A DNA stretch of 64,000 nt from Ranitomeya imitator (taxonomy: Eukaryota). The DNA lies in NCBI RefSeq assembly GCF_032444005.1, contig NC_091284.1, positions 181,102,001 to 181,166,000 of the forward strand, given 5' to 3'. Of the stretch, positions 227-57,980 are shown one piece after another (position 1 is the first letter of the stretch; the number at the start of each line of letters is the position of its first letter). Below the pieces are notes generated by a model that was given only the letters and a program-made list of their open reading frames with translations, made no database searches and had not been told where the DNA came from. The translations under genes were made by a program, and so were the position numbers.

Positions 227-263
227 CCCAACGTTTCGACCATAAAATGGTCTTTGTCAAGGG
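227..263 (-). ncRNA. Minimal type I hammerhead-ribozyme-like motif (U3/A8 core variant) in PLE 3' region
   Basis: Minus strand reads CCC-UUGACAA-A-GACCAU(UUU)AUGGUC-GAAA-CGU-U-GGG: 3-bp stem I, 6-bp stem II, palindromic ACGU stem III. Confidence 0.65.
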
Positions 264-1618
264 TACAATCTATATAAAAAAACATAGTACAGTATATGTA
301 CAAAACAATATGGATCAATCATATGTAAAAGGAAAAAAAATTAAATAAGCGCAAAAAGGTCAATGCTACTGTTACATAATAACTATAAATTTGCATATTA
401 TGTGAACTCTAAAAAGGAAAAGAAAAAATTATATGAATAAAAATGTGTATATATACATAAGATATATTATAATAAGGCCAATAAACATTATATGTTCTCC
501 AATCTAGAATATATGTGGGCAAAAGAAAACGCGGTTCATTAAACCAATATATCAAAATAACTAATAAATAATAATAAATATAGTCCCATTAGAGGTCAGT
601 ACCGTGAAAGACCGGGCAAAAAATAAACATAAACTGATAGAATTAGCTGGTCGCTTTGCAATACACAGGTACTAAACAAATTTCATAGCATATCAGCCGC
701 GATATAAGTGAACAATAGAGAGCTAATGGAAATGTATCCCCAACAAAGGGCCCAGAAAACCAAAAGAAAAGAAATAAACTGCAGGCAAAATGGATCCAAA
801 TGTGCTATAGGAGTAATAATAGTTACCTGTATAAGAAAACAAGATTCCAGACAGCAGTCCCAGAGCAGTAGTATACCGGCGTGCGGAAGGACCTTATATA
901 GGGCAGTGATGCAATATCCTGCCTATCATGTGATGAAGCCGAGAAGTCCCGAAACAAGCCGAGATGGGACACAAAGTAGAGCGCATGCGTCGTAGCAATA
1001 GAGCCGGAGACATCCGAAAAGAGCCGAAGAAAACGGAGAAAGAGAAAAAGGAAGGAGAAAGAACTGCGCAAGCGCAGAGAGATAAGGTGCCGCAGAGAAG
1101 TGCGCATGCGTCATAGCATAGAACCGGAGACATCCGAAAAGAGCCGAAGAGCGCGGCGAAAGAGAAGGAGGAAAAGAGAGGGCTGCGCAGCCGCAGAAAA
1201 TTAAGGAGCCGCTAATAGATTCAAGAAATAGGATAAGGTGAAGAGGTAAAAACTACTTGGGAAAGAGCTAAATAAGAAGAGAGGGAAAAAGGAAAAGGGT
1301 ATAAACAGGAAGAGCAGAAAAGGAAAAAGGGAAAAGAAACAAGAAAGACATGCCCAAAGAAAGGGGGGATACATTACCAGTGCATCAAGAAACCTATGAT
1401 AATAAGAACAAAACAAAAAGGAGAAATTATTATACACAAAAACTAGACAATGTGACATATGACAAATGACAATACATTTAGTAGCTAATCTCATACTCCC
1501 TATTCAGTCCCCACGGTTCCAGTGTTTGTAATGTAAAAATCCAATAAGATTCCCTAGATTTCAGCCTCTTGATCCTGTCTCCTCCTCATCTGGGCAAAGC
1601 TACACACTCTATCACCTG

Positions 1619-3964
1619 TTATTTCAATTGTGACACATTGTGTCCAGCGGCGGCAAAGTGTGCTGGGATAGGCAACATGAGTTTTTGACACCTAATGGTG
1701 GATTTGTGCTGAGATATGCGGTCTCGGATATGTTGGGTAGTCTCCCCAACATATCCGAGACCGCAAGGACACTTGATCAAATATACAACATAAGAAGAAT
1801 TGCATGTAAAAAAACCATTTATATTAAACAACTTTCCAGACCGGGGGTGTGAGAAGGTCTTGCCCTTTGTAATGTTCGAACATTGCAAACAATGAAGACA
1901 AGGGAACGTGCCCCATTTCTGAGTAACAAGAGTCCTCTGTGTGTAATGGGGTTTGTCAGAACCAATGTCAGCTCTCACCAAAAGATTTCTAAGATTAGAA
2001 GGTTTTTTGTAACACATAATAGGGGTGTCATTGAATTCGGGTATATTAGGATAAGCTTTGCCTAGTAAATCCCAATGACGTAAGACACAATTTTTTATCT
2101 TATAAAGATATGGATGGAATGTGCTGACAAAGGGTATTCTCTGTCTCCCCAGACTTTCTTTGTTGCTCATAATATTAGTTCTGGCCTTTTGAAGTGTTCT
2201 CAAAGGATAGCCACGTTGTAAGAATTTAACTGACATCTCCTGATATCGCACGGTCTGTTTACCCTCATTAGGTATTATCCGAGATAATCGGTGATATTGA
2301 GAAGTGGGTAAAGACTGTTTAACATGTCGGGGGTGACAACTGCTATGATGCAATAAACTGTTCTTGTCGGTTGGTTTACAGTATAGGTCCACATCAAGAT
2401 TACCATCAGCTTCTAATGTAATCATTGTATCCAAAAAATTGATGGATATTGCGCTCTTCTGCATAGAAAATGACAAATTGGGAACACAGGAATTCATATC
2501 ACTTATGAACTGAAGGAGAAGATCCTCCTCCCCCTTCCAAATCATAAAAACATCATCTATATACCGTTTCCAGTATATAGAATGTGTTTGGAATAGTGAA
2601 TGTGTATAAACGTAACTTTCCTCGAAAGCCGCCATGAAAATGTTCGCATATGGTGGTGCCATGTTTGAACCCATGGCCGTCCCGGTTTTTTGTATATAGT
2701 ATTGATCGCCAAACAAGAAAAAATTCTTATGTAAGACCAGAAACAATAAATCCACACAAAACTGGAGTTGATCAGGAGAAAAATTGGTGTGTTTGGTCAA
2801 GAACCATTGGACTGCCTCAATACCCCTTTGATGGTTAATACACGTATACAGACTATTCACATCTAACGTAACAAGTGTACACCCAGAGGCCACCGGAGTG
2901 ATGGCATGTAATTTAGAAAGAAAATCTGTAGTGTCTTTAAGATACGAAGAAATGTTCTGTAGTAAGGGAGTAAGAATATGGTCCAGGGTAATAGCAAGAG
3001 GAGAGAGAAGTGAATTAGTTGATGCCACGATGGGTCGTCCTGGTGGGTTCATTAAGTCCTTATGCACTTTCGGCAATATGTAAAACACCGGTGTCATAGG
3101 TTGAGTATTGATAAGGTATTCACTTAGTTTAACATCAATCGTACCTTTACCTTTATATTTTTCCACAATCTGGCGTATCTCTCTCGCTACATCAAAAGTA
3201 GGATCTCGATCAATTGGCTGATAAGTAGTTCCATCACTAAGTTGTGTTTGTATGATAGATGTATAATGGGATTTGTACATGACAACTATAGAGCCCCCCT
3301 TATCGGCGGGTTTAATTACAATCCGCATATTCTCTTTCAAACTCCTCAATGCATCTTTTTCTATAACAGATAAATTTCTATTTATACGCATTGAGCCTTT
3401 TTGAATGGATTTCAAATCGAATTCAACATCCCTTTTAACAAGTGAGATATATACCTCAATAGGATGATAAATACGTGGAGGATTATAATTACTTGGGACT
3501 CTGAGGCCTAATTGTTTCAAATGAAATGATGTTGCAGATTGACTGGGATTAGTAGCATCAGCAGTCCTTTCCTCAACTGGATTACTGTTAAAGTGTACTT
3601 TGAGTCTTAGAGACCTAAAAAATCGGTGTAACTCTTGATCTAATGTAAAACCGTTAAAGGAGGGGGTGGGGCAGAATGATAGTCCTTTTTGTAGGACATT
3701 GTATTCAGTGGGTGAGAGATTATAGGATGGTATATTGTAGACAATCTGGTTGTCCCTACCTGAGATCGTGTGCGTATCCGTGAACTCTCGAAGATTGTAT
3801 TGTCTGCGACCCCTCCTCGTCGGCTTTTTGTACTTTTCCCCGGCCTCTGCTCTAAAAAAGGAAGGGGAGTACGAGACACAAATTCGCTTTCGGAACCTGA
3901 TGACGTTGAAGAGTTGCCACGACGGTAACTCCTTCTTTCCTTGTAATAATTTGAGTCCCGCCAT
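1619..3964 (-). CDS. PLE ORF2: reverse transcriptase + Cys linker + GIY-YIG endonuclease (C-terminus cut by nonsense codons)
   Basis: 781-aa ORF with NLSPTEYNVLQKGLSFCP, IKPADKGG, GTAMGSNMAP and RYIDD motifs. TAT>TAA at 1619-1621 and CGA>TGA further on, relative to copy 2. The conserved tail WIFTLQTLEPWGLNREY continues to about 1490. Confidence 0.9.
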   Translation of the reverse strand: MAGLKLLQGKKELPSWQLFNVIRFRKRICVSYSPSFFRAEAGEKYKKPTRRGRRQYNLREFTDTHTISGRDNQIVYNIPSYNLSPTEYNVLQKGLSFCPTPSFNGFTLDQELHRFFRSLRLKVHFNSNPVEERTADATNPSQSATSFHLKQLGLRVPSNYNPPRIYHPIEVYISLVKRDVEFDLKSIQKGSMRINRNLSVIEKDALRSLKENMRIVIKPADKGGSIVVMYKSHYTSIIQTQLSDGTTYQPIDRDPTFDVAREIRQIVEKYKGKGTIDVKLSEYLINTQPMTPVFYILPKVHKDLMNPPGRPIVASTNSLLSPLAITLDHILTPLLQNISSYLKDTTDFLSKLHAITPVASGCTLVTLDVNSLYTCINHQRGIEAVQWFLTKHTNFSPDQLQFCVDLLFLVLHKNFFLFGDQYYIQKTGTAMGSNMAPPYANIFMAAFEESYVYTHSLFQTHSIYWKRYIDDVFMIWKGEEDLLLQFISDMNSCVPNLSFSMQKSAISINFLDTMITLEADGNLDVDLYCKPTDKNSLLHHSSCHPRHVKQSLPTSQYHRLSRIIPNEGKQTVRYQEMSVKFLQRGYPLRTLQKARTNIMSNKESLGRQRIPFVSTFHPYLYKIKNCVLRHWDLLGKAYPNIPEFNDTPIMCYKKPSNLRNLLVRADIGSDKPHYTQRTLVTQKWGTFPCLHCLQCSNITKGKTFSHPRSGKLFNINGFFTCNSSYVVYLIKCPCGLGYVGETTQHIRDRISQHKSTIRCQKLMLPIPAHFAAAGHNVSQLK

Positions 3965-4485
3965 CTACAGACTTGTTCCCGGTGATAGTCCTCAGCGTCG
4001 CGCAAGAATTTGGATCGTTTTCTCTCTTGAAGTTGGGATCTGAATTCCTCAATAGTCTTGTTAGTTTTCTGTAAAATAAAGTCAAATTTATCCATAGTTA
4101 ATGTACTACTCAGTTGTTGTTGAATAGAGGTGATCTGTTCCTTGATCGTTGAAAGTTCCTTATGGAGATACTCAATGGTGAGAATGATTATGTCCATAGA
4201 GCATTTGTTCAAAATGCTTTCGAATTTCTGGCAAAAATCCGGTTTATCCTGGAAGAGTGTGGGTCTGAGGGAGACTCGAAGTCCTCTAGGTATCCTCTTG
4301 ACCTTATGATATTCAGCTAATGTCACATAGTGTAGTTCAAGAGCTGTTTTCCTTCTTAGCTCTCTCTCCAAATCACGGGATCTGATCTCTTCTGAAGGGG
4401 TATGTAAAAATTCCCCTGAAATAGTAACACGAGAGATGATTTCTTCTGGCTCTGCTGGGCCATAAGATAAAGTATTAAATGACAT
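3640..4485 (-). CDS. PLE ORF1: 281-aa helical/coiled-coil protein with basic, Ser-rich tail; overlaps ORF2
   Basis: ATG-initiated open frame inside the element boundary; amphipathic segment (LHKELSTIKEQITSIQQQLSS); its 3' part is conserved in frame in copy 2 (4567-4932). Confidence 0.75.
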   Translation of the reverse strand: MSFNTLSYGPAEPEEIISRVTISGEFLHTPSEEIRSRDLERELRRKTALELHYVTLAEYHKVKRIPRGLRVSLRPTLFQDKPDFCQKFESILNKCSMDIIILTIEYLHKELSTIKEQITSIQQQLSSTLTMDKFDFILQKTNKTIEEFRSQLQERKRSKFLRDAEDYHREQVCRWRDSNYYKERRSYRRGNSSTSSGSESEFVSRTPLPFLEQRPGKSTKSRRGGVADNTIFESSRIRTRSQVGTTRLSTIYHPIISHPLNTMSYKKDYHSAPPPPLTVLH

Positions 4486-4607
4486 GTATCTGGTTTTCGA
4501 GGTGCAGTGAACCCAAAAAATTTCAAATATAAATGACCAGGGTCAGAGAGAAAACAATCCAAATTCTTGCGCGACGCTGAGGACTATCACCGGGAACAAG
4601 TCTATAG

Positions 4608-7600
4608 ATGGCGGGACTCAAATTATTACAAGGAAAGAAGGAGTTACCGTCGTGGCAATTCTTCAATGTCATCAGGTTCCGAAAGCGAATTTGTGTCTCG
4701 TACTCCCCTTCCTTTTTTAGAGCAGAGGCGGGGGAAAAGTACAAAAAGCCGACGAGGAGGGGTCGCAGACAATACAATCTTCGAGAGTTCATGGATACGC
4801 ACACAATCTCAGGTAGGGACAACCAGATTGTCTACAATATATCATCCTATAATCTCTCACCCACTGAATACAATGTCCTACAAAAAGGACTATCATTCTG
4901 CCCTACCCCCTCCTTTAACGGTTTTACATTAGATCAAGAGTTACACCGATTTTTTAGGTCTCTAAGACTCAAAGTACACTTTAACAGTAATCCAGTTGAG
5001 GAAAGGACTGCTGATGCTACTAATCCCAGTCAATCTGCAACATCATTTCATTTGAAACAATTAGGCCTCAGAGTTCCAAGTAATTATAATCCTCCACATA
5101 TTTATCATCCTATTGAGGCATATATCTCACTTGTTAAAAGGGATGTTGAATTCGATTTGAAATCCATTCAAAAAGGCTCAATGCGTATAAATAGAAATTT
5201 ATCTGTTATAGAAAAAGATGCATTGAGGAGTTTGAAAGAGAATAAGCGGATAGTAATTAAACCCGCCGATAAGGGGGGCTCTATAGTTGTCATGGACAAA
5301 TCCCATTATACATCTATCATACAAACACAACTTAAGGCCCCTTCACATTAAGCGACGCTGCAGCGATACCGACAACGATGCCGATCGCTGCAGCATCGCT
5401 GTTTTGTCGCTGGAGAGCTGTCACACAGACAGCTCTCCAGCGACCAACGATCCCGAAGTTCCCGGGTAACCAGGGTAAACATTGGGTTACTAAGCGCAGG
5501 GCCGCGCTTAGTAACCCAATGTTTACCCTGGTTACCAGCGTAAAAGTAAAAAAAAAAAACACTTCATACTTACCTACCACTGTCTGTCCCCGGCGCTCTG
5601 CTTCTCTGCACTCCTCCTGCACTGACTGAGCACAGCGGCCGGAAAGCAGAGCGGTGACGTCACCGCACTGCTTTCCGGCTGACCGACGCTCACAGCCAGT
5701 ACAGGAGGAGTGCAGAGCACAGCGCCGGGGACAGACAGCGGTAGGTAAGTATGTACTGTTTTTTTTTTTTTTTACTTTTACGCTGGTAACCAGGGTAAAC
5801 ATCGGGTTACTAAGCGCAGCCCTGCGCTTAGTTACCCGATGTTTACCCTGGTTACCAGTGAAGACATCGCTGGATCGGTGTCACACACGCCGATCCAGCG
5901 ATGTCCACGGGAGATCCAGCGACAAAAAAAAGTTCTGGACTTTGTTCAGCGACCAACGATCTCCCAGCAGGGGCCTGATCGTTGGTCGCTATCACACAGA
6001 ACGATTTCCTTAACGATATCGTTGCTACGTCACAAAAAGCAACGATATCGTTAACGATATCGTTATGTGTGAAGGTACCCTTAGTGATGGAACTACTTAT
6101 CAGCCAATTGATCGAGATCCTACTTTTGATGTAGCGAGAGAGATACGCCAGATTGTGGAAAAATATAAAGGTAAAGGTACGATTGATGTTAAACTAAGTG
6201 AATACCTTATCAATACTCAACCTATGACACCGGTGTTTTACATATTGCCGAAAGTGCATAAGGACTTAATTAACCCACCAGGACGACCCATCGTGGCGTC
6301 AACTAATTCACTTCTCTCTCCTCTTGCTATTACCCTGGACCGTATTCTTACTCCCTTACTACAGAACATTTCTTCGTATCTTAAAGACACTACAGATTTT
6401 CTTTCTAAATTACATGCCATCACTCCGGTGGCCTCTGGGTGTACACTTGTTACGTTAGATGTGAATAGTCTGTATACGTGTATTAACCATCAAAGGGGTA
6501 TTGAGGCGGTCCAATGGTTCTTGACCAAACACACCAATTTTTCTCCTGATCAACTCCAGTTTTGTGTGGATTTATTGTTTCTGGTCTTACATAAGAATTT
6601 TTTCTTGTTTGGCGATCAATACTATATACAAAAAACCGGGACGGCCATGGATTCAAACATGGCACCACCATATGCGAACATTTTCATGGCGGCTTTCGAG
6701 GAAACTTACGTTTATACACATTCACTATTCCAAACACATTCTATATACTGGAAACGGTATATAGATGATGTTTTTATGATTTGGAAGGGGGAGGAGGATC
6801 TTCTCCTTCAGTTTGTAAGTGATATGAATTCCCGTGTTCCCAATTTGTCATTTTCTATGTAGAAGAGCGCAATATCCATCAATTTTTTGGATACAATGAT
6901 TACATTAGAAGCTGATGGTAATCTTGATGTGGACCTATACTGTAAACCAACCGACAAGAACAGTTTATCGCATTATAGCAGTTGTCACCCCCGACATGTT
7001 AAACAGTCTTTACCCACTTCTCAATGTCACCGATTATCTCGGATAGTATCTAATGAGGGTAAACAGGCCGTGCGACATCAGGAGATGTCAGTTAAATTCT
7101 TACAACGTGGCTATCCTTTGAGAACATTTCAAAAGGCCAGAACTAATATTATGAGCAACAAAGAAAGTCTGGGGAGACAGAGAATACCCTTTGTCAGCAC
7201 ATTCCATCCATATCTTTATAAGATAAAAAATTGTGTCTTACGTCATTGGGATTTACTAGGCAAAGCTTATCCTAATATACCCGAATTCAATGACACCCCT
7301 ATTATGTGTTACAAAAAACCTAATCTTAGAAATCTTTTGGTGAGAGCTGACATTGGTTCTGACAAACCCCATTACACACAGAGGACTCTTGTTACTCAGA
7401 AACGGGGCACGTTCCCTTGTCTTCATTGTTTGCAATGTTCGAACATTACAAAGGGTGAGACCTTCTCACACCCCCGGTCTGGAAAGTTGTTTAATATAAA
7501 TGGTTTTTTTACATGCAATTCTTCTTATGTTGTATATTTGATCAAGTGTCCTTGCGGTCTCGGATATGTTGGGGAGACTACCCAACATATCCGAGACCGC

Positions 7601-7789
7601 ATATCTCAGCACAAATCCACCATTAGGTGTCAAAAACTCATGTTGCCTATCCCAGCACACTTTGCCGCCGCTGGACACAATGTGTCACAATTGAAATATC
7701 AAGTGATAGAGTGTGTAGCTTTGCCCAGACGAGGAGGAGACAGGATCAAGAGGCTGAAATCTAGGGAATCTTATTGGATTTTTACATGA
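4608..7789 (+). pseudogene. Disrupted RT/GIY-YIG ORF2 of PLE copy 2
   Basis: Split by the MITE at 5335-6080; TAG at 6860-6862; 3-bp deletion in KKPSNL; TTA>TGA at 7787-7789. Confidence 0.9.
5335..6080. mobile_element. PIF/Harbinger-type MITE, 746 bp, TTA TSD
   Basis: TTA at 5332-5334 and 6081-6083; removing it restores CAA CTT AGT GAT (QLSD) as in copy 1; imperfect TIRs AGGCCCCTTCACAT / GGGTACCTTCACAC; internal inverted repeats. Confidence 0.9.
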
Positions 7790-9047
7790 CAAACACTGGA
7801 ACCGTGGGGAATGAATAGGGAGTATGAGATTAGCTACGAAATATATTGTCATTTGTCATATGTCACATTGTCTAGTTTTTGTGTATATTAATTTCTCCTT
7901 TTTGTTTTGTTGTTATTATCATAGGTTTCTTGATGCACTGGTAATGTATCCCCCCTTTCTTTGGGCATGTCTTTCTTGTTTCTTTTCCCTTTTCTGCTCT
8001 TCCTGTTTATACCCTTTTCCTTTTTCCCTCTCTTCTTATTTAGCTCTTTCCCAAGTAGTTTTTACCTCTTCACCTTATCCTATTTCTTGAATCTATTAGC
8101 GGCTCCTTAATTTTCTGCGGCTGTGCAGCCCTCTCTTTTCCTCCTTCTCTTTCGCCGCACTCTTCGGCTCTTTTCGGATGTCTCCGGTTCTATGCTATGA
8201 CGCATGCGCACTTCTCTGCGGCACCTTATCTCTCTGCGCTTGCGCAGTTCTTTCTCCATCCTTTTTCTCTTTCTCCGTTTTTTTTGGCTCTTTTCGGATG
8301 TCTCCGGCTCTATTGCTACGACGCATGCGCTCTACTTTGTGTCCCATCTCGGCTTGTTTCGGGACTTCTCGGCTTCATCACATGATAGGCAGGATATTGC
8401 ATCACTGCCCTATATAAGGTCCTTCCGCACGCCGGTATACCACTGCTCTGGGACTGCTGTTTGGAATCTTGTTTTCTTATACAGGTAACGATTATTACTC
8501 CTATAGCACATTTGGATCCATTTTGCCTGCAGTTTATTTCTTTTCTTTTGGTTTTCTGGGCCCTTTGTTGGGGATACATTTCCATTAGCTCTCTATTGTT
8601 CACTTATATTGCGGCTGATATGCTATGAAGTTTGTTTAGGACCTGTGTATTGCAGAGCAACCAGCTAATTCTATCAGTTTATGTTTATTTTTTGCCCGGT
8701 CTTTCACGGTACTGACCTCTAATGGGACTATATTTATTATTATTTATTAGTTATTTTGATATATTGGTTTTGTGAACCGCGTTTTCTTTTGCCCACATAT
8801 ATTCTAGATTGGAGAACATATAATGTTTATTGGCCTTATTATAATATATCTTATGTATATATACACATTTTTATTCATATAATTTTTTCTTTTCCTTTTG
8901 AGAGTTCACATAATATGCAAATTTATAGTTATTATGTAACAGTAGCATTGACCTTTTTGCGCTTATTTAATTTTTTTCCTTTTACATATGATTGATCCAT
9001 ATTGTTTTGTACATATACTGTACTATGTTTTTTTTATATAGATTGTA

Positions 9048-9084
9048 CCCTTGACAAAGACCATTTTATGGTCGAAACGTTGGG
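9048..9084 (+). ncRNA. Minimal hammerhead-ribozyme-like motif (U3/A8 variant), PLE copy 2
   Basis: CCCTTGACAAAGACCATTTTATGGTCGAAACGTTGGG, identical to the motif in copy 1. Confidence 0.65.
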
Positions 9085-9227
9085 AAAATTTTCTGTTATA
9101 TCCTGTTGTCATGGCTGTGAACTCCCAGAACAAATAATTATAATAATAAAGAATTCATCATTGGATACAAGACTTCTCTACTTTTTTCTTATAAGAGTGC
9201 TGGAGGTTGTTCTATTACATTGTACTA

Positions 9228-9241
9228 AATTTTAGTATATA
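9228..9241. repeat. Right copy of the 14-bp TSD
   Basis: AATTTTAGTATATA, same as 15-28. Confidence 0.8.
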
Positions 9242-34795: not shown

Positions 34796-36648
34796 CCAAC
34801 TAGAAGGGGACATGATTCTAGTTACAGCAGATACCAAAATGCTGCTTACCTGCATTCGCCATGAGGATGGCTTCTTCCTGGAGATGTGCAACTGGGATGG
34901 CATATCTGTGATTTAATTATGGAACTACAGACTTACATTCTAACTCTTAATTTTTTTGTATTCAAGGATATTTTCTACTTGCAGCAGCGTGGCACTACCA
35001 TGATTATGTCCTGCGCTCCATCCTGTGCCAACCTTTTCCTAGGATATTGGGAGAGGGAGGTTTTTGGCGGCGATGACACTGGGCCTCAGAGCATGTGCAA
35101 TGCTGGTTGTGCTACATTGGTAACCTGTTCATCATCTGGCAAGGGCCAGAACATGAATTACAAAAATGTATGCAGCAATTAAACTCTAACAGGTTTAACA
35201 TCAAGTTTACCTATTCTATGAGTGGGGCAATGGTGGACTTCCTGGACATTAAAATTGAGACTGACCAAGATCATTTTTTGCAAACAGATGTATTCAGGAA
35301 GTCCACCTCGATCAACTCTTTGCTGCATGCGAGTTCCAGCCATCCCTACAGTACCATAAAGCCATCCCAGTTGATCAATTCCTCAGGATGAGGTTGATCT
35401 GTTCCTTTGAGCCCAATTTTGAATCCCAAGCTTTGGATATTACAAATGGATTCAAGGCAAAGGGAACCAGCAATAGGTGCATTAAGGCGGGTATTCTAGA
35501 GCAAAACAGGGCACACGGGACAAAGTCCAAGCTAAAGAGGAAAAAATAAAATAGCTAGCACTCCGTAATGCTGTAAATCAATCCTTTCTTCTATTACCTG
35601 GACCCGGTGTAGAGTCTGATCGATGCAAAACAGCTGTCGTTCTTTCCTGTACCTGCTTTCCCGCATCCATGTACTACTTGCATTGAATAAAGAAAGGATT
35701 GTTTAACTGCATCACGGAGTGCAACCTATTTTTTTCTCTTTGGCCTGGAAATTTATATGACGCTGATAGTTTCAGATGTTGCACCCGGGATTTTGCAAGC
35801 CGTACACTGCTGTTCCGCTGAGTAAGCTTGAAAAGGTATGTTTTAAGTTGTTTGGTGCTGGTTTTTCTCATTTTCCACAGGTGCACACCAGACAAGTTAT
35901 TGCATCCCCAAACAAAAAAGAAATATGTGGATGATATGACTTGTTACATTTCTACTTATAATGGGGAGTGAGCCACTATGAGATCGTGTCTCGAAAAACA
36001 TTGGGGGATCCTTTAAACAGATCCCACACTTACAAAACTTCTAACTGATCACCCCCTTATGGCATCAAGACAAAGCAGTAACCTAATAAATATTCTTAGG
36101 AGTAGCCACTACATCCCTGCTTCTGACATGAAAAAAAACTTTTTGGGGTCAAAGGGACTTTGCTCTGGTTGTATCACATGTGGAAATTGCATTTTGTGCA
36201 AGAACATCTGCTGCAGCTCAACCTTTGTGTCAGTGGATCGAAAGAAGAAGTTTTCCATCAAACAGCACATTACGTGCAGTACAACTCAGGTTATTTACTA
36301 TGCTACATGTCCTTGCCCTAAAGTATATATCGGTTTAACATCATGGCACCAGGGAACTCGCACACGCGAACATGTCCATGACGTCATGGCTCCAGAGACA
36401 GATATCACACAGCTTAAAATATTACTCTGCCATTTTAGACTATTCCACAAATGTAACCCCAAGTTACTCTAGGTCAAAGTCATTGAACATGTTCAGTGTG
36501 GTATTAGGTGAGGTGATAATAAATGTCGAAAAGTATAGAATGTATATACACTGGCTCTTAATCACCTGGAAGGATAACATGGAAGAGCCACAAAAGCTGC
36601 AGGTGGTTAAAACAGGTTCTGTGCAAAACTCTGTTGAAAAAATAAATC

Positions 36649-36955
36649 CACTAAATAATAATACTATTAACCACCGCACTAAAAGAGGCTAGAATATCGC
36701 TATACTTACTTATAATATAGCTGTTTCTGTGTTGTGTGGGGATCCTTATGCATAGAAGGGTACACCCAGTTATAGTAGTTTACTGAAAGGTATAAATATA
36801 CATCTTTTGTATATTTACCTTTCAGTAAACTACTATAACTGGGTGTACCCTTCTATGCATAAGGATCCCCACACAACACAGAAACAGCTATATTATAAGT
36901 ATAGCGATATTCTAGCCTCTTTTAGCGCGGTGGTTAATAGTATTGTTATTTAGTG
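36649..36955. repeat. Near-perfect palindrome, about 150-bp arms with a 7-nt loop
   Basis: Arms mirror around ATCTTTT at 36802-36808. Confidence 0.92.
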
Positions 36956-37698: not shown

Positions 37699-39305
37699 CA
37701 GTGGGGCAAAAAAGTATTTAGTCAGTCAGCAATAGTGCAAGTTCCACCACTTAAAAAGATGAGAGGCGTCTGTAATTTACATCATAGGTAGACCTCAACT
37801 ATGGGAGACAAACTGAGAAAAAAAAATCCAGAAAATCACATTGTCTGTTTTTTTAACATTTTATTTGCATATTATGGTGGAAAATAAGTATTTGGTCAGA
37901 AACAAAATTTCATCTCAATACTTTGTAATATATCCTTTGTTGGCAATGACAGAGGTCAAACGTTTTCTGTAAGTCTTCACAAGGTTGCCACACACTGTTG
38001 TTGGTATGTTGGCCCATTCCTCCATGCAGATCTCCTCTAGAGCAGTGATGTTTTTGGCTTTTCGCTTGGCAACACGGACTTTCAACTCCCTCCAAAGGTT
38101 TTCTATAGGGTTGAGATCTGGAGACTGGCTAGGCCACTCCAGGACCTTGAAATGCTTCTTACGAAGCCACTCCTTCGTTGCCCTGGCGGTGTGCTTTGGA
38201 TCATTGTCATGTTGAAAGACCCAGCCACGTTTCATCTTCAATGCCCTTGCTGATGGAAGGAGGTTTGCACTCAAAATCTCACGATACATGGCCCCATTCC
38301 TTCTTTCATGTACCCGGATCAGTCGTCCTGGCCCCTTTGCAGAGAAACAGCCCCAAAGCATGATGTTTCCACCACCATGCTTTACAGTAGGTATGGTGTT
38401 TGATGGATGCAACTCAGTATTCTTTTTCCTCCAAACACGACAAATTGTGTTTCTACCAAACAGTTCCAGTTTGGTTTCATCAGACCATAGGACATTCTCC
38501 CAAAACTCCTCTGGATCATCCAAATGCTCTCTAGCAAACTTCAGACGGGCCCGGACATGTACTGGCTTAAGCAGTGGGACACGTCTGGAACTGCAGGATC
38601 TGAGTCCATGGTGGCGTAGTGTGTTACTTATGGTAGGCCTTGTTACATTGGTCCCAGCTCTCTGCAGTTCATTCACTAGGTCCCCCCGCGTGGTTCTGGG
38701 ATTTTTGCTCACCGTTCTTGTGATCATTCTGACCCCACGGGGTGGGATTTTGCGTGGAGCCCCAGATCAAGGGAGATTATCAGTGGTCTTGTATGTCTTC
38801 CATTTTCTAATTATTGCTCCCACTGTTGATTTCTTCACTCCAAGCTGGTTGGCTATTGCAGATTCAGTCTTTCCAGCCTGGTGCAGGGCTACAATTTTGT
38901 TTCTGGTGTCCTTTGACAGCTCTTTGGTCTTCACCATAGTGGAGTTTGGAGTCAGACTGTTTGAGGGTGTGCACAGGTGTCTTTTTATACTGATAACAAG
39001 TTTAAACAGGTGCCATTACTACAGGTAATGAGTGGAGGAAAGAGGAGACTCTTAAAGAAGAAGTTACAGGTCTGTGAGAGCCAGAAATCTTGATTGTTTG
39101 TTTCTGACCAAATACTTATTTTCCACCATAATATGCAAATAAAATGTTAAAAAAACCAGACAATGTGATTTTCTGGATTTTTTTTTCTCAGTTTGTCTCC
39201 CATAGTTGAGGTCTACCTATGATGTAAATTACAGACGCCTCTCATCTTTTTAAGTGGTGGAACTTGCACTATTGCTGACTGACTAAATACTTTTTTGCCC
39301 CACTG
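37699..39305 (-). mobile_element. Full-length Tc1 (IR/DR type), 1607 bp
   Basis: TA TSD; long (over 200 bp) TIRs starting CAGTGGGGCAAAAAAGTATTTAGTCAG. Confidence 0.95.
37915..38937 (-). pseudogene. Tc1 DD34E transposase (340 codons) with one premature stop
   Basis: MVKTKELSKD start at 38937; TGA at codon 57 (38767-38769); DETK, DNDPKH-34-E and [12 protein letters not shown] intact. Confidence 0.92.
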
Positions 39306-42017: not shown

Positions 42018-43669
42018 CAGTTATATGAAAAAGTTTGGGCACCCCTATTAATCTTAAGCTTAATGTTTTTCAAAAAATTGTTTTTTTTTGCAACAGCTAT
42101 TTCAGTTTCATATATCTAATAACTGTTGGACACAGTAATGTTTCTGCCTTGAAATGAGGTTTATTGTACTAACAGAAAATGAGCAATCTGCATTCAAACA
42201 AAATTTGACAGGTGCATAAGTATGGGCACCCCACCAGAAAAGTGACATTAATATTTAGTAGATCCTCCTTTTGCAAAAATAACAGCCTCTAGTCACTTCC
42301 TGTAGCTTTTAATGAGTTCCTGGATCCTGGATGAAGGTATTTTTGACCATTCCTCTTTACAAAACAATTCCAGTTCAGTTAAGTTTGATGGTCGCCGAGC
42401 ATGGACTGCCCTCTTCAAATGATCCCGCAGATGTTCAATGATATTCAGGTCTGGAGACTGGGATGGCCATTCCAGAACAGTGTAATTGTTCCTCTGCATG
42501 AATGCCTGAGTAGATTTGGAGTGGTGTTTTGGATTATTGTCTTGCTGAAAGATCCATCCCCTGCGTAACTTCAACTTTGTCACTGATTCATAAACATTAT
42601 TGTCAAGAATCTGCTGATACTGAGAGGAATCCATACGTCCCTCAATTTTAACAACATTCCCGGTGTCGGCATTGGCCACACAGCCCCAAAGCATGATGGA
42701 ACCTCCACCAAATTTTACTGTGGGTAGCAAGTGTTTTTCTTGGAATGCTGTGTTTTTTGGCCGCCATGCATAACGCCTTTTTGTATGACCAAACAACTCA
42801 ATCTTGGTTTCATCAGTCCACAGGACCTTCTTCCAAAAAGAAATTGGCTTCTCCAAATGTGCTTTTGCATACCTCAGCCGACTCTGTTTGTGGCGTGCTT
42901 GCAGAAACGGCTTCTTTCGCATCACTCTCCCATACAGCTTCTCCTTGTGCAAAGTGCGTTGTATAGTTGACCGATGCACAGTGACACCATCTGCAGCAAG
43001 TTGATGCTGCAGCTCTCTGGAGGTGGTCTGAGGATTGTCCTTGACTGATCTCACCATTCTTCTTCTCTGCCTTTCTGATGTTTTTCTTGGCTTGCCACTT
43101 CTGGCTTTAACAAGAACTGTACCTGTGTTCTTCCATTTCCTTACTATGGTCCTCACAGTGGAAATTGACAGGTTTAATCTCTGAGACAGCTTTTTGTATC
43201 CTTCCCCTGAACAACTATGTTGAATAATCTTTGTTTTCAGACCATTAGACAGTTGTTTTGAGGAGCCCATGATGCCACTCTTCAGAAGAGATTCAAACAG
43301 GAGAACAACTTGCAAGTGGCCACTTTAAGTAGCTTTTCTCATGATTGCATACACCTGGCTATGAAGTTCAAAGCTCAATGAGGTTAGAAAACCAAAAAAA
43401 GTGTTTTAGTAAGTCAATACAATGTAGGTAGGAGTATTTAAAACAAGAAAATGATAAGGGTGCCCATACTTATGCACCTGTCAAAGTTTGTTTGAATGCA
43501 GATTGCACATTTTCTGTTAGTACAATAAACCTAATTTCAAGGCAGAAACATTACTGTGTCCAACAGTTATTAGATATATGAAACTGAAATAGCTGTTGCA
43601 AAAGAAACAATTTTTATAAAACATTAAGCTTAAGATTAATAAGGGTGCCCAAACTTTTTCATATAACTG
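42018..43669 (-). mobile_element. Full-length Tc1 (IR/DR type), 1652 bp
   Basis: TA TSD; TIRs CAGTTATATGAAAAAGTTTGGGCACCC with an inner direct repeat GGTGCATAAGTATGGGCACCC. Confidence 0.95.
42248..43270 (-). pseudogene. Tc1 DD34E transposase, nearly intact; last 15 aa lost to a TGA
   Basis: MGSSKQLS start; DETK and DNNPKH-34-E; YRK*LEAVIFAKGGSTKY*. Confidence 0.9.
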
Positions 43670-45250: not shown

Positions 45251-46170
45251 CCTTTGCTAGAATTCATCAGTTAAGGTACCGTCACACTAGACGATTTTAC
45301 AACGAGAACGACAACGATCCGACCAAAATAAGATCGCTGGAACGTCGCTGTTTAGGTCGCTGCAGAGATGCCAAACACACCAACCTACGAACGATGCTGG
45401 AGCGATATAGTGACGTAACAGCGACTCACAGATCGTCCTCGCTAGTCGTTTGCTCAGTGTCACACAGCAAGAGTGTAACGATCTAACGATGCAGACGTAG
45501 CCAGATAGGTGTGTTTTCTGCACAGGGAGACACCCAGGATGTGACGTTACGGCGTCCCGGAATATAAACCGCAACTCTACAGCGATTGATTCATATTGTT
45601 GGAGCGCTGTGTCTTCACGGTCTTCTGCCTTTCCAGCGTCCTGTTCGGAACGATCCTTCGCCAGCTACGATCCTCTTCTCCCGTGGACGTTCTGTCTAGA
45701 ACGTATTCTACTGCAGGCGTCTTCATCGTTTCTTTTCTTGCTCATCAACGGTATGAAATGTCTTTCAGTTGTTTGTTTCTTTTGTGTATAGTTATGGCTA
45801 TTCAATAATGTTTATCTATGTATATGGTGTAATGATGGATAAAACACCTCCGGCAGCCATCTTGTGCATCTGGCAAGCAGACGCACAAGATGGAGGCATT
45901 ACTATGCGATTTGCAAACTCAGTTGCGCTGTCTGCCAATTTTGCACACACCATATGGAAAGGTAAACTAGCTGTCTGCCAATTTTGCACACACTATATGG
46001 AAAGGTTAACTAATTCTCTTGTGTCTGCCTTGGCTGGCCCTGGCGTGCTCCGCTAGTAAATAAAACAGCACACAACTTAAAGGAACGAAATTTTTTTTTT
46101 TTTAGAAACTGAACTGTTTTTTTTTTTTTTTCAACAAAACACTACAGAAAAACAGAAAAAAAAAACATTT

Positions 46171-48381
46171 TTAACGCCCGCGCGCCAAAAGGTGTCGCAG
46201 CGTGCGTCCATGTTGCTGCACTTGATGCTGCAGCAGCACTACTGTGCGCTCCAAGAGCGCTACTGTCCGCTCCAGTCCCTCTTGTTTGGCCAGCAGCTCT
46301 CTCACAGTGTCCGGTTCTGTAGATCGAAGATAGAATAAAAGTCTTTTTTTTTTGTCCTGTCCCAGAGGTCTTTTTTTTATTGGTTGCATTTTATTAGTCG
46401 CTGTCAAATGTGACATCCCACCGATAACCCCTCCCACTGTCTGTATACTTACGGAGAAGGGACGCCTGTTGTCCATCACTGGAGCTGCTGACCACCCATC
46501 CCCTGTCTCGGGCCAGAGTTCCCGGAGCTAAAAGTAATCAAAATCATATCTGTTTAACAATTGAACTCGCTGTGGGGAACCGCTCGCAGTTTATCGTCAC
46601 TTACGAATGCTCGCCTCTGGGGAGAATGATGCCGAGCCGGGGGAGGAAGATGGGTAGCGGAAGGGCGGAGTAGTGGACTGCGGTGGGGTTACTGCATCTG
46701 TAATGTATACAATATTTCAGCTCACCTCTTATGTCCCATATGCCGTTATAATTTTGAAATGAATGATGGATAACTTACGTGACGGTCCAGCTTGTGGGCT
46801 GCTGCTGCTGCTGCTGGAAGATGTGGGGGAGGATAGTACCCTCTGTAGCCGGCGGCGTCTCTCTACACAAAAATAAAAGAAACACCATGTTTAGACAACA
46901 AAAGTACAGAGCTGTAGACATCACAATAAAACTAGACAATATTGACAGCAAAAGTTAGGAGCCTGAAATGAATGATGGATAACTTACGTGACGGTCCAGC
47001 TTGTGGGCTGCTGCTGGCCGCTGTGGTGGAGGTCAGTGCCCTCTGGTGCCGGCGGCGTCTTTCTACACAAAAATATAAAAAAAAAAAATCGCCATGTTTA
47101 GACAACAAAAGTACAGAGCTGTAGACATCACAATAAAACTAGACAACATTGACAGCAAAAGTTAGGAGCCTATCGAAATTCGGCAGCATCTGTAATGTAT
47201 TCTATATTTCTGCTCCCCTGTAAAGTCCCATATGCAGTTATAAAATTGAAATGAATGATGGATAACTTACGTGACGGTCCAGGCTGTGGGCTGCTGCTGG
47301 CCGCTGTGGTGGAGGCCAGTGCCCTCTGGTGCCGGCGGCGTCTTTCTACACAAAAATATAAAAAAAAGAAATCGCCATGTTTAGACAACAAAAGTACAGA
47401 GCTGTAGACATCACAATAAAACTAGACAACATTGACAGCAAAAGTTAGGAGCCTATCGAAATTCGGCAGCATCTGTAATGTATTCTATATTTCTGCTCCC
47501 CTGTAAAGTCCCATATGCAGTTATAAAATTGAAATGAATGATGGATAACTTACGTGACGGTCCAGGCTGTGGCCTGCTGCTGGCCGCTGTGGTGGAGGCC
47601 AGTGCCCTCTGGTGCCGGCGGCGTCTCTCTACACAAAAAAATTAAAAAAAAGAAATCGCCATGTTTAGACAACAAAAGTACAGAGCTGTAGAAAAAAAAA
47701 AAAAAAAAGAGGCCATTTGCGGGAAGGAGTAAAAATCAATTTTGACAAGCTAAATGTAATTACATATATAGAACATAGGAAGCACCTCACGGCAGTGCAC
47801 GTCTCCTGTTTCCCCCTACTGGCAGTGCGAGCAGGGTTGCCAACCTCCACGTAATGATTTCAGGCCAATCGGGATTACAATTGCGGACATCCGTATAAAT
47901 TAAATATGGGGGGTGGAGATTATGGAATTCATGACCTGACCAATTTTTACGCGACAACGCATTTTTGCGCTTGGACACTATAGAAATTTGAAAAGAAAAT
48001 ATTAAATTTTTGTCCTCGTAAGTCCCGGACAAGTTGGCAACCACGGGCACGAGTCTCCCATTTCCCCCCGCTCGGTACCGTGCGTCTTCCAATTCCACCA
48101 TTCTGATACTTGCCTTGCTTTGCCTCCGCTCGCAAGTGTGCCAGATGGAGTGGCTGCTTATAGCGCAGGTCGGCCCACTTCTTGCGCAGTTGCAGCGCAC
48201 TGCGCCGGATGCTAAACCTCCTCTCCATCATTTCTGCAATGCGGCCCAGCACTGCATTCTTGTGCAAATTTGGGTGGGCAGGCCGGCTCCTCCGTCCCTC
48301 ATAGTCGAGGGCATCCATTCTGTCCACAAAAAAACGCACCTCGGCCTGCCCCAGAGGAGCACAGCGCTGTCTCGCCGCCAT
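46171..48381 (-). CDS. Predicted 8-exon Myb/SANT-like (trihelix-type) + coiled-coil protein, about 296 aa (copy A)
   Basis: Exons 48114-48381, 47554-47628, 47271-47345, 46988-47062, 46779-46862, 46605-46697, 46453-46527, 46171-46316; all introns phase 1; N-terminal F.DRMD...VLGRIAEMM...LQLRKKWADLR motif. Confidence 0.72.
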
Positions 48382-48671
48382 TTTCTAAAGATAGACGCTG
48401 TACGGCACCGCCTAACCACGCCCAGAGGAGGTCCTAGCTGCGGCGCGATCGGCATCGCTATAGCGTCTCTGATTATGCACAGCGTCGCGTTTGTGACGCC
48501 GGCTCCAGACATCCTTTTTTTTTTTTTGGCGTTCCCGTTACCAAGTCACAGCGTTTATTGTCTTGCTTTCAGTTTTGTAGTAGCTTGTATCGTAATTTTG
48601 GGATGTTAATGAGGTGCAGCTGTAGTGTTAAACGCTGCTTATTACACATGTAAATATAAATTTCCATTAAA

Positions 48672-48948
48672 TCCTATGTTCACATTTCTGTAGAACAGGG
48701 CAGCGTCTGAGATGCAACGCTGAACAGATATGTGAGCACATGCCCAACGCCGCTTTTTGTGACCCATGCATTAACTTTTCCATGGTTTTAGGGTCAGAAA
48801 AAAAACATCATGCATCGTCCTCTGTGTCCTGACGCATGATTCACAAAACGATAGGGCAACACATGTTATTTCAGGCCCCTAGGTAAAATATAGTGGCACA
48901 TGCATTGCCGTGGCTGCACCGAACAAAACGCTAATGTGAACTTTGCCT
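48672..48948. mobile_element. Degenerate Harbinger MITE between the Myb-like gene and the transposase
   Basis: Imperfect TIR ...GTTCACATT / AATGTGAAC... with TAA/TTA flanks. Confidence 0.45.
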
Positions 48949-49068
48949 TATAACAAAAAAAAAAAAAAAAAAAGATGTGTGAACACTATTTAACAGTATT
49001 GGTTGTCTTGTGTCACTTTAGCAAATCATATGTAATAATTATTTTTTATTGTGCTTTTTCAGGTTGCC

Positions 49069-50328
49069 ATGTCTCTTTCGGATGTACCTGCGATTGTAGC
49101 GGCTGCATTGCTGTTAGAAGCTCAGAACCAGCTGGAGGCTGAAGCGCGAAACAATCGTGCAAAGCGACAGCGCCGCATGTGGACCAGACAGTGGCTGCAG
49201 AAGAGGAATCAATTGTCCCACATGGGCCTAATCAGGGAACTGAAGGAGAACAACCCGCATGATTTCAAGAACTACCTGAGAATGTCCGAGGATTCATTTA
49301 ATTTCCTACTTGAAGCTGTGGAACCTTATATTAGGCGGCAAAATACAAGGATGCGAGCTGCTGTCCCTGTGGATGAGAGACTGGCTGTTACGCTCCGGTT
49401 CCTGGCGACTGGAAGGTCTATGCAAGACTTGCATTACTGCGCTGCGATTTCCCGAACCCTACTCAGCGTCATAATTCCGGAGACATGTAAAGCAATTATC
49501 TCTGCTTTACACCAAAATTACATGCCTTTCCCGGAGACCCCGGATGATTGGAAAGAGATTTCAAGGGGATTTCATGAGCAATGGCAGTTCCCTAATTGCG
49601 GGGGTGCCTTGGATGGGAAACATGTCCGCATCACCCAACCACCACACTCCGGCTCCTTTTATTATAACTATAAGGGTTATTTCAGCGTAATTCTGATGGC
49701 CCTCGTTAATGCGAACTACGAATTTGTAAGTGTGTCTGTAGGGATTAACGGGAGATTATCTGATGGCGGAGTTTTGGAGCTAACCGATTTTGGGGACCGC
49801 TTGAAAGAAAACAAACTGGCCTTGCCTCCCAACAGTGACACTACTGAAAACATGAACTTTGTGTTTGTCGGAGATGAGGCGTTCCCACTGCATCCCAACC
49901 TTTTGAAGCCATTCTCCCAGAAAACTCTGACACCTGAGCGGCGCATATTTAATTACCGGCTTTCGAGAGCTAGACGCGTTGTGGAGAATGCGTTTGGAAT
50001 CATGGCAAACCGATTTCGTGTTTTCCACACTGCAATGAACATGAAACTATCGTCTATAGACTCTGTGGTTCTTGCTTGTTGCGTCCTCCACAACTTTTTG
50101 CGCCGCCGTGATGCCACTGCATACAGCCCTCCACAGTATGTAGACTCTGTTGACCCTGCAAACGGGGATATAACCCAGGGAGAATGGCGTCTAGATGAGC
50201 ACAGGGTTTCTGGCCTGGAAAGTCTGGGATCCGGAAGGAACAATGATGACGCGACAAATTGCAGGGAAAAATACTGTGACTTTTTCAATGGTCCAGGGGC
50301 TGTCTCATGGCAGCACCAACAATTGTAG
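49069..50328 (+). CDS. Harbinger (HARBI1-like, DDE_Tnp_4-type) transposase, 419 aa from the ATG at 49069, intact
   Basis: FKNYLRMS, ERLAVTLRFLATG, GALDGKH, FVGDEAF, RVVENAFG; a splice acceptor (TTTTTCAG at 49055-49062) suggests a 5'-UTR intron. Confidence 0.95.
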   Translation: MSLSDVPAIVAAALLLEAQNQLEAEARNNRAKRQRRMWTRQWLQKRNQLSHMGLIRELKENNPHDFKNYLRMSEDSFNFLLEAVEPYIRRQNTRMRAAVPVDERLAVTLRFLATGRSMQDLHYCAAISRTLLSVIIPETCKAIISALHQNYMPFPETPDDWKEISRGFHEQWQFPNCGGALDGKHVRITQPPHSGSFYYNYKGYFSVILMALVNANYEFVSVSVGINGRLSDGGVLELTDFGDRLKENKLALPPNSDTTENMNFVFVGDEAFPLHPNLLKPFSQKTLTPERRIFNYRLSRARRVVENAFGIMANRFRVFHTAMNMKLSSIDSVVLACCVLHNFLRRRDATAYSPPQYVDSVDPANGDITQGEWRLDEHRVSGLESLGSGRNNDDATNCREKYCDFFNGPGAVSWQHQQL

Positions 50329-50571
50329 CGCAACTGTCGGCATATCTTTTACCATTTATTAGGGATTACATTTGTTTTTGTTCATCCGCTCTCGTGTACC
50401 ATTCTTTTTAGAACCCAACCAATTTCTTTGTCAAGTAACAATGTCAACATAACGATATATTGATTTATGTACATTGTCTTGTTCTTTTTATTCCATTCCA
50501 ATTAAAATATTGAACTATGAAAATACTCTACTTCTGTATCAAACATATGAACCATGGGAATCAACAACCTC

Positions 50572-50705
50572 NNNNNNNNNNNNNNNNNNNNNNNNNNNNN
50601 NNNNNNNNNNNNNNNNNNNNNNNNNNNNNNNNNNNNNNNNNNNNNNNNNNNNNNNNNNNNNNNNNNNNNNNNNNNNNNNNNNNNNNNNNNNNNNNNNNNN
50701 NNNNN
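50572..50705. other. Run of 134 N
   Basis: Seen directly; mirrored by 146 N at 57835-57980. Confidence 0.99.
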
Positions 50706-50983
50706 AGCACTCCCAAAGTTTCATGTGAAAAAAAAAATGGAGATTTAATCGACCCACATCACTGCGCGACGTTTCAGCTCACTGAACCTTTTTCAAGGCT
50801 CGAAAAAGGCTCAGGGAGCCGAAACGTCGAGCAGTGATGTGGGTCGATGAAATCTCCATATTTTTTTCACATGAAACTTTGGGAGTGCTGCCTTCTTTTT
50901 CCTATTTTGTATATATGTTGGATAAATGCTTGGACCATTCTATCCAGGGGGCTAGGCACCCGCTATTGGTGAGCATTGTGCTG

Positions 50984-50986
<3 letters not shown>
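50706..50986. mobile_element. Inverted pair of PLE-end fragments with back-to-back hammerhead-like motifs, followed by (TA)n at 50987-51039
   Basis: About 92-bp arms (50706-50797 and 50799-50889) mirror each other; each arm starts UYGAAAAA-stem II-GAAACGUC. Confidence 0.65.
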
Positions 50987-51042
<56 letters not shown>

Positions 51043-51303
51043 GATTATAATGCATTTGGTATTGTACAGTATGCATGTCCACTTTGCATATTGCCCACCC
51101 ACATAGTATTTTGCCCATCCAGAGAGCCACGTAGTATGGAGACAAATTTGAAAAATATATATATTTTATTTGTTTTCACATGACATTTTCATGTGGCACA
51201 AGGATTAATTACCGGGCGTCAGGCCAATGACTGCAGGGCAGTAGGCAGAGTGGATTATGGACGTTATAAAACTGAAGTCTATAGTGTTTTCAAGACAAGA
51301 TCC

Positions 51304-52684: not shown

Positions 52685-52929
52685 CTAAAAAAAGAATAAA
52701 AACATGAAGCAACATCAAGCAAGAAAGTTGTGGCCCCTGTGCCTTTCCTAATGTGAGCAGCCTTCTCTTGTATGGGATGGGCCGTGCGCTCTTTCCTTTT
52801 GGTAGCCACCATTTTAGTGATGGAATGGTTCGTATGTTTTTTTTATAATATTAATACCAATTTTGGGGCTTGAAAATGGCAGATTAAAAAAAAAAAAAAA
52901 AAATTACCATGAAAGATTTAATAAGAACG

Positions 52930-53200
52930 CTGATGAGTTCAAAATCTCCAACCAGGTCGCTCACAAGAAGCTAGAGAACGATGTAAAGGTCTCGATTTAC
53001 AACCACGACGCTCACGAGATGTTAAATCAATACGGATCAGAATTCCAGATTTCAAAACAAGACGCTCACGAGAGGTTATAAAACAAAGACGCTGCAAAGA
53101 TCTTGATTTCCAACCAGAACGCTTACGAGATGGAGAATGAACACGATGCAGAGTTGTGGATTTCCAACCTATTGCAAGATGCTCGTAGTTGAAGTACGCA
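52930..53200. repeat. Degenerate tandem repeat, unit about 55 bp (5 units)
   Basis: ATTTC(C/A)AACCAGGACGCTCACGAGA-like motif recurring; translates as ISNQDAHE-like repeats. Confidence 0.65.
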
Positions 53201-53329
53201 CAAGTGATTGAACAGTTGACTCAAGCTTTTTATATCGGAACCTTGCTATAGAACCTACCTATAGATGATCCCGCTGTGGCCTATCACAGTTCACAGGGAG
53301 ACATCACACCCACTCCATTGTATAACGTT

Positions 53330-57212: not shown

Positions 57213-57473
57213 GGATCTTGTCTTGAAAACACTATAGACTTCAGTTTTATAACGTCCATAATCCACTCTGCCTACTGCCCTGCAGTCATTGGCCTGACGC
57301 CCGGTAATTAATCCTTGTGCCACATGAAAATGTCATGTGAAAACAAATAAAATATATATATTTTTCAAATTTGTCTCCATACTACGTGGCTCTCTGGATG
57401 GGCAAAATACTATGTGGGTGGGCAATATGCAAAGTGGACATGCATACTGTACAATACCAAATGCATTATAATC

Positions 57474-57553
<80 letters not shown>

Positions 57554-57556
<3 letters not shown>

Positions 57557-57834: not shown

Positions 57835-57980
57835 NNNNNNNNNNNNNNNNNNNNNNNNNNNNNNNNNNNNNNNNNNNNNNNNNNNNNNNNNNNNNNNNNN
57901 NNNNNNNNNNNNNNNNNNNNNNNNNNNNNNNNNNNNNNNNNNNNNNNNNNNNNNNNNNNNNNNNNNNNNNNNNNNNNNNN
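57835..57980. other. Run of 146 N
   Basis: Seen directly. Confidence 0.99.

Follow-up and report, generated by a model that had tools for sequence, protein, structure and literature searches.

The window, a stretch of 64,000 nt from Ranitomeya imitator, carries on its minus strand a decayed copy of a large family of two-frame, Neptune-type Penelope-like elements (PLEs). Comparison of the copies argues that -1 ribosomal frameshifting at a U_UUU_UUA heptamer within the upstream ORF1 is the likely source of the reverse transcriptase-endonuclease (RT-EN) protein in this family, and that the ORF1 protein probably derives for the most part from a spliced RNA lacking the whole RT-EN frame.

The element and its local copies

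On re-reading the sequence, the ORF1 coordinates proposed in the first-pass annotation were confirmed, as were the heptamer TTTTTTA (ORF1 offset 626, read as CCT TTT TTA GAG) and an ORF2-frame ATG at offset 521, which is immediately preceded by TAG (Table 1). This ATG is a by-product of a conserved Trp codon. TTTTTTA is the sole XXXYYYZ motif (Z not G) in ORF1 phase inside ORF1. The same heptamer is indeed found in copy 2, and the accompanying caution that the two copies are close kin was justified; copy 2 is a twin from the same insertion, inverted, truncated at its 5' end and 98% identical to copy 1, and thus gives no independent evidence of heptamer conservation. The predicted fusion of about 1000 aa has the right length (1002 codons), but this is counted through two stops in the endonuclease tail of copy 1, at 1621 and 1588. 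Copy 2 carries a 745-nt insertion plus further in-frame stops, and both local copies are decayed. Since only about 60 nt of element sequence lie upstream of ORF1 at this locus, the promoter is probably missing, and with both copies decayed the frameshift claim concerns the family and not the window copy. The last 39 codons of ORF1 lie past a conserved splice donor.

ORF2 matches Pfam RVT_1 (E 2.8e-9), and a GIY-YIG motif was located C-terminal to the RT, its Pfam match (E 0.0038) falling below the cut-off in the truncated window copy. A CCHH motif is present as well, its two Cys falling between GIY and YIG (VVYLIKCPCGLGYVGET, HKSTIR and HFAAAGH), and CLHCLQC at 1900 (CxxCxxC) matches the CX2-5CxxC pattern of the RT-EN linker, a pattern that Nematis has too. 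A pLTR with tandem or inverted copies is indicated by the inverted twin and by the 3' UTR, which matches the 5' flanks of family copies. This predicted domain set fits the Neptune-type EN+ PLEs as defined in the available text of PMC8557442, with which the window family shares an RT plus C-terminal GIY-YIG with CCHH, the CxxCxxC linker, the pLTR and tandem or inverted copies. Each search of the Ranitomeya imitator genome returned about 13,000 first-look candidates, and the family copies are spread over many contigs.

By analogy with Penelope, the TATA-like box and the CAG/GTAA donor of the pLTR are predicted to supply a tandem copy lying downstream with its promoter and a 5'-UTR intron. A hammerhead core was noticed upstream of ORF1 in 8 of the 23 families described below and is degenerate in the window family; the Rfam scan gave zero hammerhead matches, and its hairpin matches were confined to the insertion of copy 2.

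Table 1. Features of the element, in window coordinates; a slash marks a splice junction or the break between frame-0 codons.
Feature	Position	Strand	Description or basis
ORF1	3640..4485	-	281 aa without splicing; helices to about residue 176, tail rich in S/R/G and disordered
-1-frame AUG	3962..3964	-	A/TGG at conserved ORF1 Trp175; -1 frame open to heptamer in most, not all, families
Slippery heptamer T_TTT_TTA	3853..3859	-	ORF1 phase, Phe210-Leu211; exact in 176/180 copies; column counts
Dual-coding stretch	3760..3852	-	frame 0 codes for the ORF1 tail, frame -1 for the N-terminal linker of RT; stop counts, four-fold-site divergence
Predicted 5' splice site CAG/GTAGGG	3754..3762	-	last exon base 3760, intron from 3759
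RT-endonuclease frame (-1)	1478..3853	-	Pfam and motif location; stops in window copy
RT-EN landmarks	N1 motif from 3745; YIDD 2563; CxxCxxC linker 1900; GIY-YIG 1789	-	
Predicted 3' splice site TAG/GTT TCT TGA	1385..1420	-	with pyrimidine tract; exon from 1393 adds Val-Ser-stop
TATA-like box	900-894	-	in pLTR (3' repeat; feature span 820..900); alignment of family 3' ends
Conserved CAG/GTAA donor	about 826	-	in pLTR; alignment of family 3' ends
Degenerate minimal hammerhead-like core	229..260	-	in pLTR
Inverted 5'-truncated twin (copy 2)	4545..9233	+	begins within ORF1; heptamer 4713-4719
Hairpin-rich insertion in twin	5335-6079	+	

The structure model of ORF1 is all-helical up to about residue 176 (pLDDT 79) and disordered beyond, the conserved tail ending in RIRTRSQ at codon 242. 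A profile search with ORF1 recovered 1938 clusters (50% identity) at E<=0.001, the named relatives being proteins of poison frogs, toads, tree frogs and Xenopus. No Pfam family above the cut-off, no PDB sequence match below E 0.1 and no Atlas match was obtained for ORF1, and fold comparison gave no match at E<=0.001, the best (Z 8.8) being generic bundles; this lack of family and fold matches shows neither novelty nor absence. The earlier description of ORF1 as gag-like is appropriate for its position and role only, as no capsid likeness was found for the protein and its sequence lacks a CCHC zinc knuckle.

Conservation of the offset and the heptamer

Genome searches and region retrieval yielded 250 loci, of which 238 were resolved and 12 unresolved; after 38 duplicates were dropped, 200 distinct copies remained, taken as top matches or picked by hand, which fall into 23 families with ORF1 identity down to 40%. 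The RT-EN frame lies at -1 relative to ORF1 in 180 of these copies, at 0 in 18 and at +1 in 2, and the single-ORF trait of canonical PLEs is absent, with the -1 offset in 22 of the 23 families. The expectation that the heptamer would be kept in the ORF1 frame with ORF2 at -1 was borne out in the same 22 families among own-genome copies: T_TTT_TTA is exact and in ORF1 phase in nearly all -1 copies (Table 1) while the flanking bases vary, and all seven heptamer columns score 21.8-22.0 of 22 families when weighted by family, the neighbouring columns being free. Given the background codon use of ORF1 (TTT 0.50, TTA 0.19, third-position T 0.26), protein constraint alone would give the heptamer in about 0.025 of cases per family. 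The families share ancestry and the counts are therefore not independent events; at the family level the heptamer is conserved beyond chance.

The -1 frame is protected from the heptamer onwards. It contains 0.0007 stops per codon past the heptamer vs 0.043 before it, is open to the N1 motif in 173 of 180 copies, and past the heptamer shows 1 stop where synonymous shuffling predicts 50.4. Divergence at four-fold sites likewise falls to 0.21/0.18 after the heptamer, against 0.43/0.39 in the ORF1 core. These results refute the argument that a single-ORF element inherited the offset as an indel and that its two-frame copies are dead or trans-complemented, as offset, heptamer and -1-frame constraint are kept across families. 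That argument could draw on a true in-frame family (family 20) and on 9 scattered in-frame single copies, but 22 families diverging to 40% identity keep both frames intact with an invariant heptamer and include near-identical young copies, and family 20 is nested among the -1 families. In its 9 copies RT-EN is in frame with ORF1, the heptamer is found in none (0/9), the -1 frame is full of stops and intact members have open frames of about 1000 aa; it forms one clade within the -1 families in a quick, midpoint-rooted tree of 61 rows from own-genome copies, built without families 2, 10 and 19. The remaining 9 in-frame copies are single mutants within -1 families, several of them chosen for their long frames. 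The frameshift reading thus passed the tests by comparison of families, in that offset and heptamer persist in 22 of 23, the -1 frame shows protection past the heptamer, and the in-frame family is without the heptamer.

Two other readings of the T-run itself were weighed. If TTTTTTAG served as a 3' splice site, RT would be translated from an RNA spliced into the site. A pyrimidine run with AG does occur at the heptamer in 143 of 176 copies, PLEs carry introns and the pLTR holds a donor. Against this, families 12-14 read T6A-TC/CC/AA, 33 of the 176 heptamer copies are without G after the heptamer, AG is missing from 6 of 8 intact metagenome heptamer sites, and an acceptor tract would tolerate C, which the heptamer columns do not; also, no such splice joint was seen among the compared contigs of four sequencing runs, which is a weak point. 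We consider this reading highly improbable. Slippage of RNA polymerase on the T6 run, adding a U to make an in-frame message, is very unlikely; an additional T stands at 3853 in a contig of run X2 (depth 3.2) and one genomic copy carries an in-frame T7, but the seventh base of the heptamer is held at A, and if RT came from T7 RNAs, cis-preference should presumably fix T7 in new genomic copies, whereas it stands in frame in only 1 of 191 copies outside family 20. Ribosomal slippage at the heptamer is the likely reading.

As regards the strength of the signal, the remark that no strong stimulatory hairpin is visible agrees with our scans, which concern local structure only. A stimulatory stem-loop or pseudoknot of a -1 signal would lie 5-9 nt downstream of the slippery site. 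Local folding revealed no downstream stem-loop at the heptamer (mean z 0.1/0.0; 0 of 22 below -2), a local scan of 27 representatives gave pseudoknot scores under those of shuffles, and a scan around the heptamer for G-quadruplex-like sequences found no conserved signal. According to the available part of PMC3561942, U6A without structure yields about 0.1% frameshifting. A low rate may suffice here, since ORF1 would be supplied by spliced RNA; otherwise the stimulator may be of another kind than local RNA structure.

Beyond this genome, ten metagenome contigs carry ORF1 at 28-45% identity. Nine of them reach the RT, and eight of these have N1 at -1, the ninth being a degraded in-frame copy; their sites read T6A in 4, T6G in 4 and are mutated in 1, the T6G sites violating the 'Z not G' rule for slippery heptamers given in the part of PMC3561942 available. 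Among 69 distant ORF1 proteins, 3 of which are cluster mates of one, F-L or F-F is found in the disordered tail of 63, with 4.2 expected. The killifish Neptune repeat.CL27, inspected by eye in the available supplement of PMC12602865, shares two ORFs with the second at -1, the N1 motif before the first AUG and a slippery-like heptamer: G_UUA_AAU stands where its ORF1 (73-492) terminates in W-L-N-stop, the N1 motif is found at -1 inside the 173-nt gap before the ORF2 AUG at 666, and a GC-rich stem starts 5-6 nt past G_UUA_AAU. It differs in this stem-bearing heptamer and in its ORF1, which is SGNH-like by eye. Its authors call the two ORFs non-overlapping, and the word 'frameshift' does not occur in the main text as available (PMC12602865).

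Probable splicing of ORF1 and the likely sources of RT

As argued above, ORF1 protein probably comes for the most part from a spliced RNA. The ORF1 frame is conserved up to TRSQ and then meets a donor, CAG/GTA in 149 and CAG/GTG in 30 of 187 scored copies (background: CAG 0.47, GTA 0.20), and family 20 also has this ORF1-end donor. With the acceptor in the 3' UTR, the entire RT-EN frame sits in the predicted intron. TAG/GTT-TCy-stop is found at 1393 in the window and at all 7 of the family loci whose 3' end could be read, 2 further loci having no readable end. The 3'-UTR acceptors often come with a branch-like motif and add an in-frame tail of 1-7 residues, these mini-exon tails being conserved by clade (xR-stop, xRLY-stop, MPS-stop, TGADPR-stop and FTSGGPR-stop); the acceptor calls rest on a crude rule of our own, which fires at other sites too. 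The TRSx motif occurs in 61 database proteins; 53 of them stop within 8 residues of it and 18 end in exactly the predicted tails, though these 18 annotated frog proteins are gene models which may lack an RNA basis, some perhaps being from the same species. A contig of run X3 (depth 55) covers ORF1 between 4517 and 3758 and resumes at 919, so that 2838 nt with the RT-EN frame are skipped; this single record belongs to a sibling family, with 98 differences over 760 nt, is RNA only by supposition and has a joint known by coordinates only. In the same run, the RT is covered at a depth of 0-15 for the greater part of its length. Taken together, a spliced ORF1 RNA very likely exists. The gag/pol-like expression scheme first suggested is supported as regards the slip but is incomplete, as the ORF1 protein probably comes mainly from spliced RNA and not only from ribosomes that fail to slip. 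The ORF1-end donor lies less than 40 nt from N1, which, given the size limit of introns, is too close to join ORF1 to an intact RT, and so splicing does not replace the slip.

It may also be argued that ORF2 is translated alone from the AUG at 3964, by way of an internal promoter, a truncated RNA or re-initiation, and that the heptamer has some other role. In 108 of 174 copies this AUG is present and no stop closes the -1 frame before the heptamer; the frame is open over that stretch in 108 of 135 copies with the AUG vs 4 of 39 without it, so that loss of the AUG accompanies gain of a stop in 35 of 39. The stretch is free of stops in 14 of 22 family representatives, where about 3 would be expected, and shows mild synonymous constraint (0.33 vs 0.43). 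The -1 frame is thus selectively open from the Trp AUG, and initiation there may contribute. On the other hand, the young, multi-copy families 5, 6, 22 and 23 and most of family 16 retain the heptamer even though 4-7 stops interrupt this stretch; in families 5, 6, 16 and 23 most copies are without an AUG in an open -1 stretch, and one metagenome copy (L259) has a stop directly before the heptamer. Six AUGs lie upstream of that at 3964, acceptors are not enriched before it (36 of 108 vs 16 of 66), and the in-frame family 20 joins ORF1 to RT. On these sequence patterns, we regard the AUG as a possible additional route to RT, at somewhat less than an even chance, and as an unlikely sole route.

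The frameshift reading, together with splicing, suggests the following scheme. On unspliced RNA the ribosome would slip -1 at U_UUU_UUA to yield a product of about 1000 aa, ORF1 residues 1-211 followed by RAEAG..., whereas RNA from which the RT-EN intron is removed would be the main source of the helical ORF1 protein. The slip rate would be low, given that no stimulator is seen, and ORF1 protein, with a putative RNA-binding or particle-forming role, would be in large excess over RT. As only the unspliced RNA encodes RT, cis-preference would favour copying of the RNA that still holds the intron, a possible reason why these elements retain introns. In many families the AUG, 100-120 nt upstream of the heptamer, may add a shorter RT product. 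More tentatively, and with the balance somewhat against it, three controls may be stacked here, namely RT-EN as an intron, a U6A slip without an RNA-structure stimulator and a switchable AUG giving ORF1-free RT; the stimulator would then be a trans-acting protein, a nascent peptide or a G-rich signal.

Relation to known elements and significance

Canonical EN+ PLEs are described in the literature, including the available text of PMC8557442, as single-ORF elements, to which the window family adds an upstream helical ORF1, the -1 offset and an intron over the RT-EN frame. The legend to Fig. 1 of the same study (Craig 2021, PMC8557442, as available) states that ORF1 of PLEs can be frameshift-separated, with a pseudoknot. 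That frameshift marking may also include Neptune. The remark on frameshift and pseudoknot reportedly refers to the Athena/Terminon elements of bdelloid rotifers. Within the PLE class these resemble the window family in having a coiled-coil-type ORF1 that is frameshift-separated from RT, but they have no endonuclease and are telomeric, whereas the window family has GIY-YIG, copies over many contigs and no pseudoknot found in the local scan, and does not belong to them on the first two counts. With HIV-1 gag-pol, as treated in the available part of PMC3561942, the family has in common the identical U_UUU_UUA and the enzyme frame at -1; it is without protease, integrase and LTR, neither a local stem-loop nor a capsid fold was found in it, and it is not a retrovirus. 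Ty1/Copia elements, in the accessible portion of Oberlin 2017 (PMC5580714), similarly use a short spliced RNA for the structural protein and the full-length RNA for the enzymes, but in Copia there is one frame and splicing replaces frameshifting, whereas the window family would use both together; family 20 corresponds to the copia-like state (PMC5580714, same portion). A two-frame layout with frameshifting was not found described for a Neptune-type PLE in the literature searched, where matches were confined to Craig 2021 and papers on rotifers, and 'Penelope' is absent from the available text of the Atkins 2016 review. Frameshifting and a spliced structural RNA are each known, and it is their combination in a vertebrate EN+ PLE that appears new.

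The usual teaching on EN+ PLEs is that they have a single ORF, and little is known of their life cycle; the two-frame family departs from the single-ORF picture. If the present reading is true, this very abundant lineage of amphibian elements possesses its own structural-type protein, currently listed among the 'uncharacterized' host genes of many frog genomes, with a ratio to RT set by splicing and frameshifting, and predictions of RT that start at the first AUG yield truncated proteins. The family would then provide a natural series of U6A sites without evident stimulator, and in family 20 a natural experiment in which frameshifting was lost. The long-standing question of why PLEs retain introns could also be tested directly on it. 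Should the three stacked controls prove true, they would constitute a new class of vertebrate frameshift signal, with more than 20 natural variants, and would explain how the intron is kept through retrotransposition.

Conserved motifs of ORF1 and the ends of copy 1

Two short motifs of ORF1 of the Penelope-like element (PLE) were found to be conserved. A serine-acidic patch, S-S-x-S-[DE]-x-[DE], lies 10-20 codons 5' of the slippery heptamer in nearly all of the 27 representative copies, and is a candidate nascent-peptide stimulator or a candidate set of phosphosites. The tail motif R-[MIV]-x-T-R-S-Q is retained across frogs, and may resemble the M-x-L-R-S-G of nucleosome-binding peptides. Both ends of copy 1 carry an identical 18-nt motif, located ~50 nt 5' of the position of the ORF1 AUG, which suggests a fixed unit boundary.

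Positions of the motifs and mobile elements in the window
Feature	Position	Strand
18-nt motif, ends of copy 1	25-45 and 4526-4543	
ORF1 tail motif	3760-3780	-
Patch before the heptamer	3880-3910	-
Insertion in copy 2	5335-6079	
Unrelated PLE, 3' fragment	35700-36700	+
Two transposase ORFs	37915-38727 and 42293-43270	-
18-kb palindrome	45265-63287	

Other mobile elements in the window

The insertion in copy 2 (745 nt) is MITE-like and hairpin-rich with TTA at each end, and similar sequence was noticed in the 3' UTR of the PLE locus L191. The fragment of the unrelated PLE is decayed and keeps remnants of CxxCxxC and GIY-YIG. The two transposase ORFs, presumably Tc1/mariner-like, are accompanied by ~160-nt terminal inverted repeats. 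The palindrome is near-perfect (19-nt centre, arms of ~9 kb) and is either a recent inverted duplication or an assembly artefact; it carries a Myb-like ORF, and a 419-aa ORF for a putative Harbinger-like transposase.

A predicted further intron and apparent host fusions of ORF1

Since a conserved AG|GTGAGT donor follows the terminal mini-exon by ~25 nt in the 3' UTR of loci L181, L184, L187 and L192-L194, a further intron is predicted in the ORF1 message of these families (12-15). Apparent fusions of ORF1 with host domains (BED finger, KRAB-ZNF, V2R, Hook and spinster) were observed in nine gene models of ORF1-related proteins (P0014, P0016, P0020, P0021, P0031, P0034, P0047, P0056 and P0058), reflecting either annotation error or exonization via the ORF1 splice sites.
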